Shown here one piece after another: positions 2,327 to 31,394 of a stretch of DNA of 31,394 nt. The DNA is from Nitrospirota bacterium (GTDB lineage Bacteria; Nitrospirota; Thermodesulfovibrionia; Thermodesulfovibrionales; UBA1546), in assembly GCA_016208915.1 (NCBI GenBank), contig JACQXE010000001.1, positions 1 through 31,394 on the forward strand, given 5' to 3'. The notes beneath the pieces were generated by a model. It ran no database searches, was not told the origin of the DNA, and saw only the letters and a program-made list of their open reading frames with translations. The translations under genes and the position numbers were made by a program. The number at the start of each line of letters is the position of its first letter. Position 1 is the stretch's first letter.

Positions 2327-2371
2327 CAAGGTGATACAAGATACAGGATGCAGGATACAGGATTAATATAC

Positions 2372-2406
2372 CATGCATCTTGAATCGTGAATCATGCATC
2401 TTGAAT
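2372..2406. repeat. Direct repeat CATGCATCTTGAAT x2 (2372-2385 and 2393-2406), ending directly at the ymdB start codon; preceded by ATACAGG/ATGCAGG heptamer repeats (2337-2362)
   Basis: Read directly in the rny-ymdB intergenic region. Confidence 0.4.
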
Positions 2407-2407
2407 T

Positions 2408-3190
2408 ATGAAAGTTCTTTTCATAGGCGACATCATTGGCAAGACAGGCAGAACAGTTCTCAAAACACTTCTGCCAAATCTTGTTGACAGATTCAAGATA
2501 GACATGGTAATTGCGAACGGTGAGAACGTTGCCGGTGGTTTTGGAGTAACAGACAAAACAGTCGCCGAGTTGCTGAATTATGGCGTCCATATAATCACAA
2601 GCGGCAATCACATCTGGGATAAAAAAGAATCCATTCCGTATATTGCAAAAGAAAGCAGGATATTAAGGCCTGCAAACTACCCTCCCGGCGTGCCTGGTTA
2701 CGGTAGCGTAATTCATACGCTTCAGAATGGCTTAAAGGTCGGAGTTATAAATCTCTCAGGCAGGGTATTTATGGCGCCAATTGATTGCCCTTTTCGAACA
2801 GGCAACGAAGAGATTAAAAAAATCAAAAAAGAATCTAATATTATTATAATTGATTTTCATGCAGAAGCAACCTCTGAAAAAATAGCGTTCGGCTATTATG
2901 TCGATGGCAAGGTAAGCGCAGTGGTTGGAACACATACGCATGTCCAGACAGCAGATGAAAAAATCCTTCCTGCCGGAACTGCATACATCACAGATGTAGG
3001 CATGACAGGCCCGTCAAATTCTGTCATAGGCATAGAAAAGGAGCAAATCATAGAACGTTTTTTAATGCATATGCCTATGAAATTTGAGATAGCAAAAGGG
3101 GAAAGCATCTTATCAGCAGTAGTTATAGAAGTTGATGAAAATACAGGAAAGTCAACTGCAATACAGAGGTTACAAATCAAATATCCTTAG
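2408..3190 (+). CDS. ymdB: YmdB-family metallophosphoesterase (2',3'-cyclic-nucleotide phosphodiesterase)
   Basis: Near-colinear match to YmdB signature blocks (MKVLFIGDIIG, ANGENVAGGFG, TSGNHIWDKKE, DFHAEATSEK, GTHTHVQTAD); conserved rny-ymdB pairing. Confidence 0.9.
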   Translation: MKVLFIGDIIGKTGRTVLKTLLPNLVDRFKIDMVIANGENVAGGFGVTDKTVAELLNYGVHIITSGNHIWDKKESIPYIAKESRILRPANYPPGVPGYGSVIHTLQNGLKVGVINLSGRVFMAPIDCPFRTGNEEIKKIKKESNIIIIDFHAEATSEKIAFGYYVDGKVSAVVGTHTHVQTADEKILPAGTAYITDVGMTGPSNSVIGIEKEQIIERFLMHMPMKFEIAKGESILSAVVIEVDENTGKSTAIQRLQIKYP

Positions 3191-4569: not shown

Positions 4570-5514
4570 TTAATCCTGAATCTCTTTTAATCCTACTATT
4601 GTCTTTTCAAGGCTTTCACTGTCTTCTACATTAAAAATTATCGTCTGAGGTTCGATTCTCTTAATAAGTCCTGAGAGAACCTTGCCGGGGCCGACTTCTA
4701 TAAATATCTTTACGCCTGACTCAAAAATTGTCTTTATGGAATCTTCCCATAAGACAGGGCTGTAAAGCTGTTTTAACAGAGATGCTTTTATGTCAGCAGC
4801 ATTATTTATAAATACTGCATCTGCATTGCTGACGATGGGGATCTCAGGGTTTTTCATCTCTATTTTTTCAAGAGACATAAATTCAGAGAGCTGATCAGAG
4901 GCTTCCCTCATGAGATTACAATGAGACGGAGCGCTCACTGACAATGGAAGCGCCCTCTTAGCACCGGCCTCTTTTGCACGATTTATTGCTTCTTTAACAG
5001 CACCCTTCTCACCTGCGATAACGATCTGGCCGGGACAGTTGTAATTAGCCGGGGCAACATAGCCGGAACTGACTGAAGAACATATAGCCTTCAGCTTTTC
5101 TTTATCCAATCCAAGAATTGCAGCCATGAGTCCTTTTCCCTCGGGGACGGCCTGTTGCATTAACTGACCGCGCTTTTCAGTGAGTTTTACAGCATATCTG
5201 AGCGGAAAAACTGAAGCTGCAACGAGCGCTGAATATTCTCCTAAGCTATGTCCCGCAACAACAGAAGGTGTTATCCCTCTCAATTTTAATACGGTATAAG
5301 CGGCAATACTTGCCACAAGAAGGCACGGTTGTGTTCTATAGGTTTTATTCAATTCTTCTGCTGGTTTATTAAAAGTTAAATCAGCAACATTATATCCTAG
5401 TGTATCAGAGGCTTCCCTGTAGAGAGATTTTACCTCTTTAAAATGCTCATACAGGTCTTTGCCCATTCCGACATATTGTGAGCCTTGGCCTGGGAATACA
5501 AAGGCAAGTTTCAT
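4570..5514 (-). CDS. fabD: Malonyl-CoA:ACP transacylase
   Basis: FPGQGSQ and GHSLGEY active-site motifs; 314 aa. Confidence 0.9.
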   Translation of the reverse strand: MKLAFVFPGQGSQYVGMGKDLYEHFKEVKSLYREASDTLGYNVADLTFNKPAEELNKTYRTQPCLLVASIAAYTVLKLRGITPSVVAGHSLGEYSALVAASVFPLRYAVKLTEKRGQLMQQAVPEGKGLMAAILGLDKEKLKAICSSVSSGYVAPANYNCPGQIVIAGEKGAVKEAINRAKEAGAKRALPLSVSAPSHCNLMREASDQLSEFMSLEKIEMKNPEIPIVSNADAVFINNAADIKASLLKQLYSPVLWEDSIKTIFESGVKIFIEVGPGKVLSGLIKRIEPQTIIFNVEDSESLEKTIVGLKEIQD

Positions 5515-6710
5515 GCTTTTAGCTCTTTAATCTTCTTTATCAAAAGAGGCAGCACTTCAAAAATGTCGCCGACTATTCCGTACGTTGCAACATTAAATAT
5601 AGGCGCCTCAGGATTTTTATTGATCGCAATAATGATATCTGACGACTGCATGCCGACAAGGTGCTGCACAGCGCCTGATATGCCGCAGGCGATATATATC
5701 TTTGGGCATACTGTCTTGCCTGTCTGGCCTACCTGATGACTGTATGGTATCCAGCCTTCATCAACCGCTGCCCTCGATGCGCCAACAGTCCCGCCCAAAC
5801 TTTCAGCAAGTTCTGTAAGAAGCTCAAATCCCTTTGTGCCGCCAATGCCTCTGCCTCCTGCAATAATTATATCCGCCTCCTGAAGATTTACTTTGCATTC
5901 TGAGGTCTCTTTTACAGTCTCTATTACCTTGGTCCTACAGGCAAGATTTTCTGCGTTAACAGCTATGAGCTCACCCTTTCTGTCGGGATTATACTCTCCT
6001 TTTTTCATAACCCTTGGTCTTACCGTAGCTATTTGGGGCCGATAATTAGGACAGAGTATTGTTGCCATTATATTCCCGCCGAATGCAGGACGGATCTGAA
6101 GGAGATTGCCTGTTTCCTTTTCTATCTCGAGTGATGTGCAGTCTGCAGTAAGGCCGGTTCTTAATCTCGCTGCGACCCTCGGAATAAATGAGCGGCCGAT
6201 CAGCGTAGCACCTGCAAGGACAATCGCAGGCTTATAGTCATTAATAAGCCTGACGAGAAGTTTGGAGTATGGCTCGTCATTAAATTTTTCAAAGATAGTA
6301 TCTTTCGCATGATAAACTTTATCTGCTCCCCACTTTATAAGCTCATGCGCATTATTTTCAGCAGCGCCAAATAATACAGCAGAGAGTTCTGCTCTAAGTT
6401 CATCTGCAAGCCTTCTTCCTACACCGAGCAGTTCAAGAGAAACAGATGCTAAATCTTTCTCCCTCTGTTCAGCAAATATCCATACGCCTTTATAGGCTGA
6501 GGGCTGATAGCTGATTGCTGATTGCTGTGTGCCTTCTTCTGGTATTTCTTTTATCGCTCCTTCCGGACACGCTGTTATACATGCCATGCATATCTGGCAA
6601 TATTCATTGATAAAAGCCTTGCCATCTTTGATCTCAATAGCAGTAAACGGGCATACACTAACGCATGTCTCACAACCATTACATTTGTCTCTGTTAATTA
6701 TTACAGACAT
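5511..6710 (-). CDS. etfA: Electron transfer flavoprotein alpha subunit with N-terminal 2x[4Fe-4S] ferredoxin domain (FixB-like)
   Basis: Two CxxCxxCxxxCP clusters in the first 60 aa, followed by an EtfA FAD-binding domain. Start overlaps etfB end; stop overlaps fabD start. Confidence 0.85.
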   Translation of the reverse strand: MSVIINRDKCNGCETCVSVCPFTAIEIKDGKAFINEYCQICMACITACPEGAIKEIPEEGTQQSAISYQPSAYKGVWIFAEQREKDLASVSLELLGVGRRLADELRAELSAVLFGAAENNAHELIKWGADKVYHAKDTIFEKFNDEPYSKLLVRLINDYKPAIVLAGATLIGRSFIPRVAARLRTGLTADCTSLEIEKETGNLLQIRPAFGGNIMATILCPNYRPQIATVRPRVMKKGEYNPDRKGELIAVNAENLACRTKVIETVKETSECKVNLQEADIIIAGGRGIGGTKGFELLTELAESLGGTVGASRAAVDEGWIPYSHQVGQTGKTVCPKIYIACGISGAVQHLVGMQSSDIIIAINKNPEAPIFNVATYGIVGDIFEVLPLLIKKIKELKA

Positions 6711-14193: not shown

Positions 14194-15075
14194 TCATTGC
14201 TTGGTAAGGATCTCTATAATCTCCTTGTATCTCGCAGCGGTCTTTTCAATGATCTCATCCGGAAGTTTTGGGCCCGGGTATGTCTGGTTCCAGTCGAGGG
14301 TTAAAAGATAATCCCGTACAATCTGCTTGTCAAAGCTGTCCTGACCTTTTCCGGGTTTATAGTCCTTCATAGACCAGAACCTCGATGAATCAGGCGTAAG
14401 AAGTTCATCAATCAGGATTAGTTTATTCTCATAAATTCCAAATTCCATTTTTGTATCAGCAATAATGATGCCCTTCTTCTCTGCCATTGCCCTCGCCTTT
14501 TTGTAAACCTTAAGGCTTGTATCCCTGAGCTTGTTTGCAGTATCATCACCAACAATCTTTTTCATCTCATCAAAGTTTATGTTTATGTCATGCCCTGCTT
14601 CAGCCTTTGTGCTCGGTGTGAATATCGGCTCATCCAGTCTTGATGATTCAACAAGCCCTTGAGGAAGTTTTATACCGCAGACAGTTCCTTTCTCGTTGTA
14701 TTCTTTCCATCCCGAGCCTGAGAGATAGCCTCGTACAATACATTCAACAGGCATCGGCTTTGCTTTCTTAACAAACATGCTCCTTCCTTCAAGGATGTCG
14801 CTGTATTTATGGAGAACCTGTGGATAATCCTTAACATCAGTTGCAATGATGTGATTTTCGATTATATCCTTCATCTGTTTAAACCAGTATATTGATATCT
14901 GCGTCAACACTCTGCCCTTATCAGGAATCCCATTGGGCAACACAACATCGAACGCTGAGACCCTGTCTGTTGCGACAATTAACAAGTTATCCCCAACTTC
15001 ATACACATCTCTAACCTTCCCGCGCTTTTGAAGTTTTACATCTTTAAAATTCGTCTCCATAATAACATCAGCCAT
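14194..15075 (-). CDS. purC: Phosphoribosylaminoimidazole-succinocarboxamide synthase
   Basis: Long-form SAICAR synthetase blocks ([25 protein letters not shown]-like). Start overlaps the ATPase stop by 8 nt. Confidence 0.9.
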
Positions 15076-17791
15076 TTTTTCTCCTCCTTATTAATTTTTC
15101 TACCTCAACTGCAAAGAATACTACAGATGACAGGCCGAGTGTAAACACCAATTCACCGAAAGTCAAAGGCTCTGTCTTGAATATAGGATTTAAGAAAGGC
15201 ACATATATTGTTGCCATCTGCAAGGCAAAAGTCAAAGCAAAGGCGCCAACAAGAGGCTTGTTTGAAAACAACCCCTGCTTGAAGAGGGATTCCCGGTCTG
15301 ACCTTATTGCGAGCACATGCCCCATCTGGCTTAAACACAAAACAGTAAAGACCATTGTCTGCCAGTGGGCATGGCCTGTTTTGATAGACCAGGCCTGTGT
15401 AAATAGGGATACAGCACCCATCAGGAGCCCTACCCATACGATGTGGATACCAAGGCCATGGGCAAATATGCTCTCCTGCGGGTGTCTTGGCGGTCTGTTC
15501 ATGACCCCTTTTTCCGATGGTTCTGCGGCAAGGGCAAGTCCCGGCAGGCCGTCAGTAACAAGATTGATCCAGAGTATATGGATCGGCAATAAGGGGATCG
15601 GTAAGCCGAAAAACGGGGCAAGGAATATGGTCCATATCTCACCTGAATTGCTCGTCATTGTATATTTTATAAACTTGCGGATATTGTCAAAGATTCGCCT
15701 GCCTTCTTTTACCGCCTTCACAATAGTAGCGAAATTGTCGTCCAGGAGTATCATATGGGCCGCTTCTTTTGAGACATCCGTCCCTGTTATCCCCATTGCA
15801 ACTCCGATATCCGCCCTCTTTAATGCAGGGGCGTCATTTACACCATCCCCTGTCATAGCCACGAACTGGCCCTTGTCCTGAAGCGCCTTGATTATTTTGA
15901 GTTTTTGCTCAGGCGCCACCCTCGCATAGACCCTGAGATGGTCAACCCTTTCCTCAAACTCCTCCATGGACAGCTTTTCAAGTTCCCTTCCGGTAATGAC
16001 TGTCTTTGAGCCATCTTCAATAATGCCGAGCCTTCTGGCTATCGCCATTGCCGTGATCGGATGATCGCCTGTTATCATCACAGGCTTAATGCCTGCTGTT
16101 TTACATAATGAAACAGCCTCTTTTGCCTCTTCCCTCGGAGGGTCCATTATCCCGACCAGACCTAAAATAGTAAGCGATTTCTCAACGTGCTCAGGCGACA
16201 TGTCATCAGGCAGCGCATTCCAGTCCCTCATGGCAATACCGAGGACCCTCAGCCCGTCCGCTGCCATCCTGTTGTTCATCCTGTGAAGCTTCTGCACATC
16301 AAAAGGCATTAATCCATCTGATGTGAGAATGTTATCCGCCTTCTCAAGCAGCACATCCACACCGCCTTTTGTAAAAGAGATGATACTGCTTTCACCCTCA
16401 CCCCCTCCCATCAAGGGAGGGGGAATAGTTGGGATGTCTCTCATCAATGGAGAAGAAAGTCCCCTCTCCCCTTGCGGGAGAGGGATAGGGTGAGGGGGGA
16501 TTCTATGAAACGTCGTCATGCACTTTCTGTCAGAATCAAACGGTATCTCTGCAACACGTGGAAACTCTTTTTCCAGCTTGCTTTTGTCAAAGTCTTTTTC
16601 TTTGGCGATGTTATACAAAGCAGTTTCTGTCGGATCGCCGATGATGACGCCGGACGCATCCTTCTGTGCGTCATTGCTTAAAGCCAATGCTGTCATTAGA
16701 TAGGTGTGGGGTGTGAAATGTGAAGTGCCTGTTATATCTTCCTGACTCCTGACTATTTTCCCATCCACATAAATCTCTTCCACAGTCATCTTGTTCAGTG
16801 TGAGGGTGCCTGTCTTGTCTGAACAGATGTATGTGACAGAGCCGAGTGTTTCTACTGCAGGGAGTTTTCTTATAAGGGCGTTCTGCTTTACAAGCTTTTT
16901 GGCCCCAAGCGCAAGTGATATGGTTATTACAGCCGGAAGCGCCTCGGGTATTGCTGCAACTGCGAGGGATATGGCGGTCAAGAGCATCAACAATGGAGGT
17001 TCGCCCCTGAAAACCCCTATGCCGAATACAATGGCACATATTGCAAGCACTGCAAAGGCAAGATTTTTTCCGAACGTTGCAAGCCTTTTCTGAAGAGGGG
17101 TTTTGACCTCTTCCTCTTCCTGAAGCATGGTGGCGATCTTTCCAAGTTCTGTATTCATGCCGGTGGCCACGACAATGCCGGCGCCTCTGCCATATGATAC
17201 TGCAGTGCCTTTGTAGGCCATGTTCTTTCTATCGCCCATGGGCAGGTGTTCGTCGTGCAGTGCTTTGGTGTTTTTTTCAACAGGCACGGATTCTCCGGTA
17301 AGAGCAGCCTCTTCCGCCTTTAACTGGGCGGTCTCTGTAAGTCTCATATCAGCCGGCACAACCTTGCCGGCTTCGAGCAACACGACATCACCCGGCACAA
17401 GCTCTGATGCAGGAATATTCGTATGCTCACCGCTTCTTAATACAAGGGCGGTGTGAGCAGCCATTTTCTTAAGGGCAGCCATGGCCTTTTCAGCCCGGTA
17501 TTCCTGAACAAAGCCGATCACTGCATTCAGCAGTACTATTACTATTATCGCAATCGTGTCTTCAGGGTCTCCGACAATCCCTGATATGATTGCAGCAGCA
17601 ATAAGGACAAGGATCATGAAGTCCTTGAACTGGTCAAGGAACATCATGAACGGCGTCTTTTTCTTTTTCACTTTTAATTCATTCGGGCCGTATTCCAGGA
17701 TCCGCTTCCGGGCCTCTTCTGAAGATACACCCTTTAAAGACGAGTTCAGTTCTTCAATAACATCTTCAATTGTTTTTTGGTGCCAGCGCAT
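15068..17791 (-). CDS. P-type cation-transporting ATPase (type IIA/IIB Ca2+-ATPase-like)
   Basis: DKTGTLT phosphorylation motif, [17 protein letters not shown], 10 TM helices; 907 aa. Contains a ~42-aa in-frame insert (see repeat at 16376-16501). Confidence 0.9.
16376..16501 (-). repeat. In-frame 126-nt GC-rich nested palindromic element inside the P-type ATPase N-domain (encodes [42 protein letters not shown])
   Basis: Minus strand reads CCCTCACCC ... [CCCTCTCCC-GCAA-GGGAGAGGG] ... [CCCCCTCCC-TTGAT-GGGAGGGGG] ... GGGTGAGGG. That is two 9-bp hairpins nested inside an outer 9-bp stem. The insert interrupts the normally short segment between FDSDRK...FHR and FTKGG. Confidence 0.5.
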
Positions 17792-31161: not shown

Positions 31162-31394
31162 AAGGGTCAAGTCGCACGGCCTATTAGTACTGGTCAGCTG
31201 AATGCATTACTGCACTTACACCTCCAGCCTATCAACGTGGTAGTCTACCACAGACCTTTAGGTGGCTTACGCCACGGGAGACCTAATCTTGGGGTGGGCT
31301 TCACGCTTAGATGCCTTCAGCGTTTATCCTCTCCAGACATAGCTACCCGGCATTGCCATTGGCATGACAACCGGAACACTAGAGGTCTGTCCAT
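31162..31394 (-). rRNA. rrl: 23S rRNA, 3'-terminal ~230 nt (gene continues beyond the window end)
   Basis: The reverse complement matches the universally conserved 23S domain VI and 3' end (GTTGTCATGCCAATGGCA...GCTGAAGGCATCTAAGCG...GTTGATAGGCTGGAGGTGTAAGTGCAG...GTACTAATAGGCCGTGCGACTTGACCCTT). Confidence 0.9.

Follow-up and report, generated by a model that had tools for sequence, protein, structure and literature searches.

How does a GC-palindromic segment of DNA come to lie, in frame, inside the gene for a cation pump? The question is raised by a P-type ATPase gene on contig JACQXE010000001.1 of a Nitrospirota metagenome-assembled genome (MAG). We have investigated this segment within the whole 31,394-nt stretch that was analysed (the window), following an earlier annotation made from the sequence alone (the original prediction), which had described it as a nested palindromic mini-element resembling a MITE (miniature inverted-repeat transposable element) or a repetitive extragenic palindromic (REP) sequence, inserted into a tolerant surface loop. 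We consider it likely that the segment is instead an orphan inverted pair of BoxC/PIT/TMECO repeats, one unit intact (unit A) and the other decayed (unit B), which has landed in a loop of the nucleotide-binding (N) domain of the ATPase. Repeats of this family are referred to here as triplex motifs (TMs), each consisting of a hairpin and a third segment.

As originally described, the palindromic segment lies within the ATPase gene and leaves the reading frame intact. Its proposed size of 126 nt, or 42 codons, did not hold, as alignment with orthologs, including a codon-level comparison with three that bear a homologous insert (L001, L002 and L003), delimits an in-frame insert of 37 codons (Table 1). 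The insert is located just N-terminal of the SFTKGG block and takes the place of approximately three residues in an ancestral loop of 7-10 residues (HKWxDGKFI). Both of the perfect 9-bp hairpins expected within an outer pairing were found, each with a 5-nt loop: CCCCCTCCC-atcaa-GGGAGGGGG at 16401-16423 and CCCTCTCCC-cttgc-GGGAGAGGG at 16462-16484. The outer pairing joins CCCTCACCC to GGGTGAGGG at 16488-16496, within 15-nt arms that are 87% complementary. The arrangement is, however, not a nested palindrome with an outer stem, but an inverted pair of three-segment TMs of ∼35 nt each, in which the apparent stem is formed by the two third strands pairing with each other; the pair spans ∼105 nt and its 32-nt arms are 75% complementary. 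Along the coding strand the order in unit A is CCCTCACCC-TAT-CCCTCTCCC-GCAAG-GGGAGAGGG. A GNRA-like GCAA tetraloop, proposed for one of the hairpins, was rejected, as nine perfect pairs leave a pentaloop (coding strand, GCAAG) and the loops are not constant within the family.

Decay of unit B is evident from the orthologs. In L001 and L002 the corresponding unit reads CCCCTCCC-TTGAC-GGGAGGGG-ATAAA-GGGGAGGG, whereas in the window GGGAGGGGG is followed directly by TGAGGGTG, a 6-nt in-frame deletion with respect to GGGAGGGG-ATAAA-GGGGAGGGTGAA which has removed loop 2 together with some of the third strand. The spacer between the units also differs, being 9 nt in L002 and containing a third hairpin in L001. 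One match to the hairpin pattern was returned by a search of the 31-kb window, in agreement with the expectation of no other copy, and none by 100 dinucleotide shuffles; nor is a second GC-rich perfect hairpin of such a kind found elsewhere in the window. Folding energy, a weaker test than the hairpin pattern, gave z = -1.96 for the segment as DNA, with 8 of 200 shuffles folding equally well, and z = -4.1 as mRNA, with none of 200 shuffles equal.

Table 1. Coordinates of the insert, its parts, the host gene and other repeat-bearing sites, counted from the first nucleotide of the window.
Feature	Position	Strand	Description
P-type ATPase host gene	15068..17791	minus	intact open reading frame (ORF), 907 aa, P2-type (Ca2+-ATPase-like)
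In-frame insert	16391..16501	minus	111 nt, 37 codons, I431-E467; from ortholog alignments, codon view
Unit A	16462..16496	plus	canonical BoxC/TMECO motif; 9-nt stems
Unit A, C arm	16462-16470	plus	CCCTCTCCC
Unit A, loop 1	16471-16475	plus	CTTGC
Unit A, purine arm	16476-16484	plus	GGGAGAGGG
Unit A, loop 2	16485-16487	plus	ATA
Unit A, third strand	16488-16496	plus	GGGTGAGGG, then G
Unit B	16393..16423	minus (coding)	decayed "type b" TM: CCCCCTCCC-TTGAT-GGGAGGGGG, directly followed by TGAGGGTG
Spacer between inverted units	16424..16461		38 nt, AT-richer; codes for part of a 12-residue stretch
Left half of "outer stem"	16395..16403	plus	CCCTCACCC; complement of the residual third strand of unit B
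Second hypervariable ATPase loop	16697-16756	minus	residues ∼346-365; 2-34 residues among 120 homologs
Intergenic heptamer imperfect palindrome	2333-2406		(GATACAG)n ... (ATCNTGA)n; between RNase Y-like ORF 761-2326 and ORF 2408-3190
Tandem heptamer (GCTGATT)x3.6	6503-6527	minus	in frame in ORF 5511-6710; encodes QQSAISYQPSA

The BoxC/PIT repeats, PIT standing for potential intrastrand triplex, were reportedly treated by Bachellier et al. in the 1990s and by Hoyne et al. in 2000. Under the name TMECO the family is described by the pattern CCCTCNCCC N3-6 GGGNGAGGG N3 GGGNGAGGG[GTC-] (Holder et al. 2015, PMC4666352). Unit A with the G that follows it (16462-16497, plus strand) fits this pattern exactly, as CCCTCTCCC CTTGC GGGAGAGGG ATA GGGTGAGGG G; unit B, with loop 2 missing, fails it. 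The third segment is the mirror and not the complement of the purine arm (GGGAGAGGG vs GGGTGAGGG), as in the E. coli consensus, an arrangement from which a triplex of the purine motif could form, and the mirror is perfect in the type b unit of the orthologs (GGGAGGGG / GGGGAGGG). A variant copy (L330: CTCTCTCCC / GGGAGAGAG / GAGAGAGGG) retains the three-segment logic, its arms having co-varied. In the window the two units belong to different subtypes, type a (CTCTC) and type b (CCTCC), and the same inverted combination is observed in L002 and in three pairs, L040, L041 and L044 (a Nitrospiria genome); the five inverted TMECO pairs of E. coli K-12 each likewise consist of type A with type B (PMC4666352). 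All 35 nucleotides of unit A, loops included, recur identically in the genome of Dongia, an alphaproteobacterium (L021). By pattern, mirror symmetry and subtype pairing, the element is thus a member of the BoxC/PIT/TMECO family.

Holder et al. counted 3610 copies in 262 proteobacterial genomes and, in E. coli K-12, 23 that are "always intergenic", and the E. coli consensus folds as a triplex in vitro (PMC4666352). Neither mobility functions near TMECO copies nor an association with phages was found by these authors (PMC4666352). According to the same paper, TMECO copies in E. coli are linked to locally unstable, rearranged DNA, and earlier work in vivo detected no promoter, terminator or polymerase-blocking activity of the motif (PMC4666352).

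Of the proposed MITE- or REP-like nature, the dispersed repeat family stands, whereas assignment to a classical MITE or REP does not. With respect to MITEs, the pair has the size (∼105 nt, under ∼300 bp) and the terminal inverted repeats (the 32-nt arms) expected, but neither the window copy nor the pairs L040, L041 and L044 show a target-site duplication, and no transposase of a parent insertion sequence was found with matching ends, although nuclease genes flanked by the same motifs exist, of the DUF559 type, which is not known as a transposase. REP sequences and the bacterial interspersed mosaic elements (BIMEs) that they form are defined by a 5' GTAG next to an imperfect palindrome and by a gene for a REP-associated tyrosine (Y1) transposase (RAYT) in the genome. 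No GTAG heads either unit, and no RAYT gene was encountered in the window, within which alone it was sought.

The host gene encodes an apparently complete pump. All catalytic motifs are present (DKTGT at 325-329, KG at 475-476, TGD at 574-576 and the ten-residue motif at 648-657), and the Pfam domains occur in the order Cation_ATPase_N, E1-E2_ATPase, Cation_ATPase, Hydrolase and Cation_ATPase_C, as in P2-type ATPases. Homologs number 8000, their source annotations being cation- or calcium-translocating P-type ATPases, and the closest solved relative is LMCA1 of Listeria (phmmer, E = 7e-189). The phmmer alignment to LMCA1 splits at the insert, query residues 5-431 and 472-902 matching chain residues 5-439 and 445-875, so that 40 window residues stand against ∼5 in LMCA1.

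Insertion was examined in two sets of orthologs, 120 protein homologs 75-84% identical to the window ATPase, which were aligned, and 80 metagenomic orthologs taken as DNA, of which 74 were resolved at the loop. A short loop, in which MTTFH is separated from SFTKG by 7-10 residues (in most cases of the type KWxDGKFI), is present in 30 of the 120 proteins, the others carrying very diverse inserts of up to 47 residues, and in 28 of the 74 metagenomic sequences. The short loops are scattered over the entire neighbour-joining tree, which was built with the loop masked and is poorly resolved, and the window ATPase groups with proteins (P0003, P0005, P0009 and P0002) in which the insert is absent or of another kind. 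In the AlphaFold2 model residues 435-465 are predicted as coil, with a predicted local distance difference test score (pLDDT) below 50, between strands 424-431 and 469-477, the remainder of the N domain scoring 88-93. Combined, the short-loop orthologs, the disordered loop of the model and the gap against LMCA1 bear out the original proposal of an in-frame insertion into a tolerant surface loop, and alignment and model place the inserted segment in a loop at the surface of the N domain. The ortholog comparison, which had been suggested as a check, also indicates that the insert is lineage-restricted among short loops scattered tree-wide. Homologous peptides at the same position were nevertheless found in other clades (P0019, P0037, P0083, L157 and L159), the very observation that the original prediction had taken to mean an ancestral loop. 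The loop is still not read as ancestral, because short loops occur tree-wide and the proteins closest to the window ATPase either lack an insert or carry another. Within the TM-bearing set the inserts vary from 22 to 47 aa through indels the size of a hairpin.

Length variation among the 120 homologs is confined to two segments of the ATPase, 350-365 and 432-469, and several kinds of repeat are found at both. In the DNA of the orthologs the insert loop holds TM pairs (L157, L159), heptamer palindromes of the form (GGGGTCA)n...(TGAACCC)n, plain tandem heptamers or, in L131, a composite of two families; the heptamer arrays and the palindromes derived from them include (GGGGTCA)n, (GGGGCAT)n and (GATACAG)n. 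A further class consists of nested hairpins of CCCCCC/GGGGGG type, AATCCCCCC..CCCCCCTTT-aga-AAAGGGGGG..GGGGGGATT, with stems of up to 19 bp. One insert (KIQDTGYRIQDGKNRASCIMNHASF in P0091, locus L329) is 85% identical (60/71) to positions 2333-2402 of the window, part of an intergenic element, and the inserts are therefore regarded as copies of dispersed repeats. Inserts of QQSA type, similar to the tandem heptamer at 6503-6527, occur at the ATPase hot spot in P0006 and P0103; in the window this stretch adjoins the Cys-rich N-terminal part of its ORF. The second loop carries heptamer palindromes in orthologs and a TM in P0039 and P0044 (GPSPQPSPPRGEG), and in the window a short remnant, (GTCAGGA)x2 and (TCACANN)x3. 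As read from these comparisons, the two ATPase loops trap TMs and at least four other repeat families.

Replacement at the loop is rapid. Unrelated inserts are present in nearly identical proteins (P0035 vs P0048), and beyond the insert, on its downstream side, identity of the window gene per 60-nt block amounts to 87-100% with L124-L126, in which the inserts are unrelated, compared with 72-87% with TM-bearing alleles. Insert turnover at the loop, on this comparison of alleles, outpaces divergence of the flanks. No tract of recombination was detected as raised local identity to TM-bearing alleles beside the insert, in an ungapped comparison that is unreliable beyond ∼180 nt upstream because the second indel site lies there. 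Preference for the two loops could result from structural tolerance alone; it could also reflect a target preference, since certain of the ancestral loop sequences form small palindromes. The loops offer a natural system in which to study how selfish structured DNA makes protein loop variation.

The family extends well beyond this gene. A scan of one genome per GTDB species with the compound motif CCTCACCC-N2-4-CCCTCTCCC-N4-6-GGGAGAGGG returned at least 120 loci, for which fewer than 0.01 chance matches are expected by our estimate for 26 fixed bases. Among the matches listed, the motif spans at least 15 phyla and is found in Alpha-, Beta- and Gammaproteobacteria, Desulfobacterota-type MAGs, Chloroflexota, Planctomycetota, Acidobacteriota, Nitrospirota, Nitrospinota, Cyanobacteria, Melainabacteria, Elusimicrobiota, Bacteroidota, Verrucomicrobiota, Armatimonadota, Atribacterota and others. 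Viral and proviral contigs of IMG/VR, which may include host flanks, hold at least 120 further TM loci (L204-L323), and some of them are dense in TMs, with 4 copies in 6 kb (e.g. L227, L264). The two collections together give > 240 loci, several with 2-5 copies, and for ∼10% of copies a partner lies in inverted orientation, the hairpins facing each other across a spacer of 9-97 nt (median 29). On a Dehalococcoidia chromosome, inverted TM pairs are repeated in tandem as five units of ∼143 bp, one pair per unit (OZ220748.1; L101 1391-2100). The spread over bacterial phyla and viral contigs exceeds the Proteobacteria and Cyanobacteria of the literature that was found.

Residence in a coding sequence is not peculiar to the ATPase. 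Of the six reading frames of the TM a single one contains a stop (GGG TGA GGG), and eight of 143 sampled copies (∼6%) are in-frame parts of genes in which Pfam domains flank the motif on either side, namely LigA, PriA, CheA, UDP-galactopyranose mutase (GLF), VgrG, an HrpB-like helicase, a transketolase-like fusion and a PMT_2 glycosyltransferase. All three frames of the C-rich strand are used (PSPxPSP, LTPxLS and PHPxPLP), which argues for the DNA, and not the peptide, as the conserved entity. Thus TMs are not "always intergenic", some 6% of the sampled copies being parts of real genes.

A gene that may belong with these repeats was identified among the in-frame hosts. In a Gastranaerophilales MAG (L069 1774-4404), PriA contains a complete, in-frame DUF559 domain (Pfam E = 3.8e-37) between its 3'-DNA-binding domain and helicase core, bounded by inverted TMs in the order TM(+), DUF559, TM(-), with hairpins pointing inward as in the window. 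DUF559 (PF04480) homologs were collected with this copy as the seed, a TM-flanked starting point that colours the sampling. Among the best 120 homologs of the L069 domain, 17 have ORF ends which read into TM DNA. Seven arbitrary DUF559 genes chosen without such ends (L324-L327, L330-L332; from Cysteiniphilum, Methylomonas, Ignavibacteriaceae, Dehalococcoidales, an Actinobacteria MAG and two others) all have a TM just upstream of the start codon, the G-rich third strand being nearest the gene at a distance of 5-60 nt, and in most of the seven contexts TM-like copies are also present just downstream. In one of these contexts, L332, the gene adjoins the hairpin and loop of unit B (CCCCTCCC-atcaa-GGGAGGGG). 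The GAGGGG of the third strand could serve as the ribosome-binding site of DUF559. Among 240 TM loci DUF559 genes were met incidentally five times, each time flanked by TMs (L012, L069, L099, L226, L227); the converse does not hold, ∼98% of TMs having no DUF559 gene nearby. The DUF559 gene of E. coli K-12, ycjD, has a TM-like motif at its end and a canonical TMECO ∼170 nt further downstream (NC_000913.3 1351200-1351800, L328). The 3' end of ycjD is not dispersed as remnants in E. coli, the region being single copy.

A 231-nt stretch comprising the 3' end of ycjD and adjoining downstream DNA, the TMECO excluded, is present in only 3378 of 5426 complete E. coli genomes. Where present it is single copy or nearly so. 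The pattern fits the reported variability of TMECO loci.

No hint of a link between DUF559 and repeats was given by the titles and abstracts of literature mentioning DUF559, nor did literature on bacterial intrastrand triplexes point to one. By analogy, the linkage suggests a partnership of REP/RAYT type, not found in the literature. We propose, tentatively and with confidence somewhat short of even, that TMs may be the cognate DNA of a DUF559 (Vsr-like PD-(D/E)XK) nuclease subfamily, in analogy to REP and RAYT. A nuclease gene of ∼115 aa between inverted TMs would then be the complete unit and orphan TMs or pairs its products or targets; open in five of six frames, the motif would allow the system to colonise coding loops, and tolerant loops, two in the present gene, would become cassette-like and hypervariable. 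If true, these repeats, known since the 1990s, would have their first candidate for a factor of mobility or maintenance, and E. coli YcjD would gain a role. The linkage makes the origin and spread of TM repeats, long unsettled, testable.

For the ATPase, the preferred explanation covers both what the insert is and how it may have arrived. An orphan inverted TM pair would have entered the codons for the tip of a β-hairpin loop in the cytoplasmic N domain, and would persist there because five of the six frames are free of stops, the number of its nucleotides is divisible by three and additional residues are accommodated by the loop. It would be translated as a disordered, Pro/Gly-rich loop extension of 37 residues, a passenger of the pump; on prediction, the insert is most likely translated and neutral. 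Ribosomal bypassing and intein-like removal were set aside, as the five ortholog copies, which differ in length, are in frame and stop-free and avoid the TGA-containing frame, which is as expected if they are translated. Like the family elsewhere, the inserted DNA would be a site of local instability, subject to in-frame indels and to replacement by other repeat families, and such events render this and the second N-domain loop hypervariable among orthologs that are 75-85% identical. We infer that insertion occurred through a nuclease- or repair-driven process, for which DUF559 is a candidate, rather than by classical transposition.

Several observations weigh against this explanation. Outside the N domain the AlphaFold2 model is weak, with a mean pLDDT of 61. 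The five other-clade orthologs share junctions and frame exactly with the window insert, which fits a single old insertion followed by losses or transfers as well as it does independent site-specific insertions. A by-eye search of five copies revealed no consistent target-site duplication: the flanks of the window copy, AGAATC and AGTATC, match at only five of six positions, the intergenic pairs L040, L041 and L044 have no flanking direct repeats, and the TAAAAT on both sides of the insert in L001-L003 derives from a pre-existing palindromic flank. No second TM is present in the 31-kb window or in 20-23 kb around two TM-bearing orthologs, and the family is therefore not dense in such genomes.

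Other explanations account for part of these observations. A variant that would specify the origin of the pair, unlikely but the foremost of the alternatives, regards it as the remnant of an in-frame TM-DUF559-TM unit from which the nuclease ORF was deleted. PriA of L069 has precisely this arrangement, with hairpins inward as in the window, and TMs flank DUF559 in all seven arbitrary contexts and in all five of the TM loci that contain the gene. The 38-nt spacer, however, has no detectable similarity to DUF559, none being detected anywhere in the window (tblastn best E = 2.8), most DUF559 genes show the opposite orientation with third strands facing the gene, and orphan pairs with short spacers are common. 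A function of the structure for the ATPase gene itself, through ribosome pausing or stability of the mRNA or as a DNA contingency locus for loop variants, is somewhat less probable again. It is favoured by the mRNA folding (z = -4.1, 0/200 shuffles), by retention of the hairpins in five orthologs despite indels and by the local instability with which the family is associated in E. coli (PMC4666352). The same motif is nevertheless met in whatever orientation, both between genes and inside unrelated ones across phyla, and its conservation is therefore not tied to the ATPase gene. A third of the orthologs function without any insert, the loop is cytoplasmic with no apparent selective reason for variation, unit B is decayed, and earlier work in vivo found neither promoter, terminator nor polymerase-blocking activity in E. 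coli (PMC4666352).

Growth of the palindrome in situ, by slippage or hairpin-templated synthesis at a small palindrome (ATAAAT..ATTTAT), appears quite improbable. Some ancestral loops are indeed small palindromes (L130, CATAAATGGCCTGACGGCAAATTTATC), several insert families extend such a palindrome (AAATCCCCC...GGGGGATTT) and the tandem heptamer arrays at the site resemble products of slippage. In situ growth would not be expected to yield the 35 nt of unit A that are identical to an alphaproteobacterial copy and fit a cross-phylum consensus, nor another insert family 85% identical to an intergenic window copy, and many short-loop orthologs lack the ancestral palindrome. The idea of a protein loop that is ancestral or under functional selection, such as a stretch of the N domain rich in Pro/Gly with a role in regulation or interaction, and not selfish DNA, is largely refuted and a shade less credible still. 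The homologous peptides in P0019, P0037, P0083, L157 and L159, in another part of the tree, speak for it, whereas short loops occur tree-wide, the nearest relatives have no TM insert, the TM-bearing set ranges over 22-47 aa by hairpin-sized indels, the segment is predicted to be disordered, and what is conserved is a three-segment DNA motif common to non-coding copies in other phyla. An artefact of assembly or binning, in which a chimeric join would have created the locus, can hardly be entertained: the contig does derive from a MAG and GC-rich hairpins can cause misassembly, but frame and flanking conserved motifs are intact, and homologous elements occupy this codon position in independent ENA, NCBI, Logan and JGI assemblies. 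The landing of an orphan BoxC/PIT/TMECO pair in a tolerant loop is therefore retained as the explanation of choice.

The wider context of the gene and of the window provides additional observations. MAGs that bear the label Nitrospirota/Thermodesulfovibrionales share 75-84% identity in this ATPase with others labelled Smithellaceae, Syntrophaceae, Desulfovibrionales and Thermodesulfobacteriota (P0001-P0120). Such identity is unusually high across phyla and suggests, from the protein alignments, either horizontal gene transfer or errors of binning or labelling. Rfam at gathering thresholds, applied to the whole window, gave no match at the insert and detected only a 6S RNA gene at 222-410 (93 bits, plus strand) and, at 31163-31394 (minus strand), the 3' portion of a 23S (large-subunit) rRNA gene cut by the end of the contig.

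In comparison with known systems, both the repeat family and in-frame palindromic insertions, the latter in Rickettsia, are known already. The window element resembles BoxC/PIT/TMECO in its 9-nt stems, 5-nt loop 1, 3-nt loop 2, mirror third strand and inverted pairing of subtypes. The published BoxC/TMECO copies are from Proteobacteria and Cyanobacteria and are intergenic in K-12, whereas the present copy resides in a Nitrospirota MAG and, in frame, in an essential-type gene; unlike published TMECO, one unit of the pair is decayed, and DUF559 genes in the present survey are flanked by the motif. The heptamer families at the ortholog loop and at window positions 2333-2406 and 6503-6527 are distinct from the TM. 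STRR-type heptamer repeat families are known from cyanobacteria. G-rich heptamer repeats are described from Xanthomonas and Nostoc (PMC4692102), and the present heptamers may be related to published ones.

Rickettsia palindromic elements (Ogata et al. 2000, 2002) are, according to a later account, ∼150-bp families restricted to Rickettsia, each with a conserved peptide (PMC10969869). They too are palindromic repeats in frame in unrelated conserved genes, and are translated as additional stretches of peptide with which fold and function are apparently compatible. The TM differs in being a 35-nt three-segment G/C motif found across phyla and in any frame, the likeness being one of behaviour. In-frame MITEs, such as QMITE1 of Coxiella, intragenic ERIC and Correia elements (PMC10969869, PMC5896051), resemble the TM pair in being small, non-autonomous and ORF-compatible with terminal inverted repeats. 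Unlike MITEs, the pair was found with neither a target-site duplication nor a parent insertion sequence encoding a DDE transposase.

The closest parallel to the proposed partnership is the REP/RAYT system, reportedly described as a "REPtron" by Nunvar et al. in 2010 and Ton-Hoang et al. in 2012. REP/BIME repeats are short, GC-rich and structured, often occur as inverted pairs without target duplications, and flank the gene of their presumed cognate enzyme. As in REP/RAYT, inverted repeats flank a candidate enzyme gene, here DUF559 with its TMs. The TM differs from REP in having no GTAG head and in its three-segment architecture, which is not a simple hairpin, and its partner would be a Vsr-like PD-(D/E)XK nuclease (DUF559), whereas that of REP is a Y1 HUH transposase.

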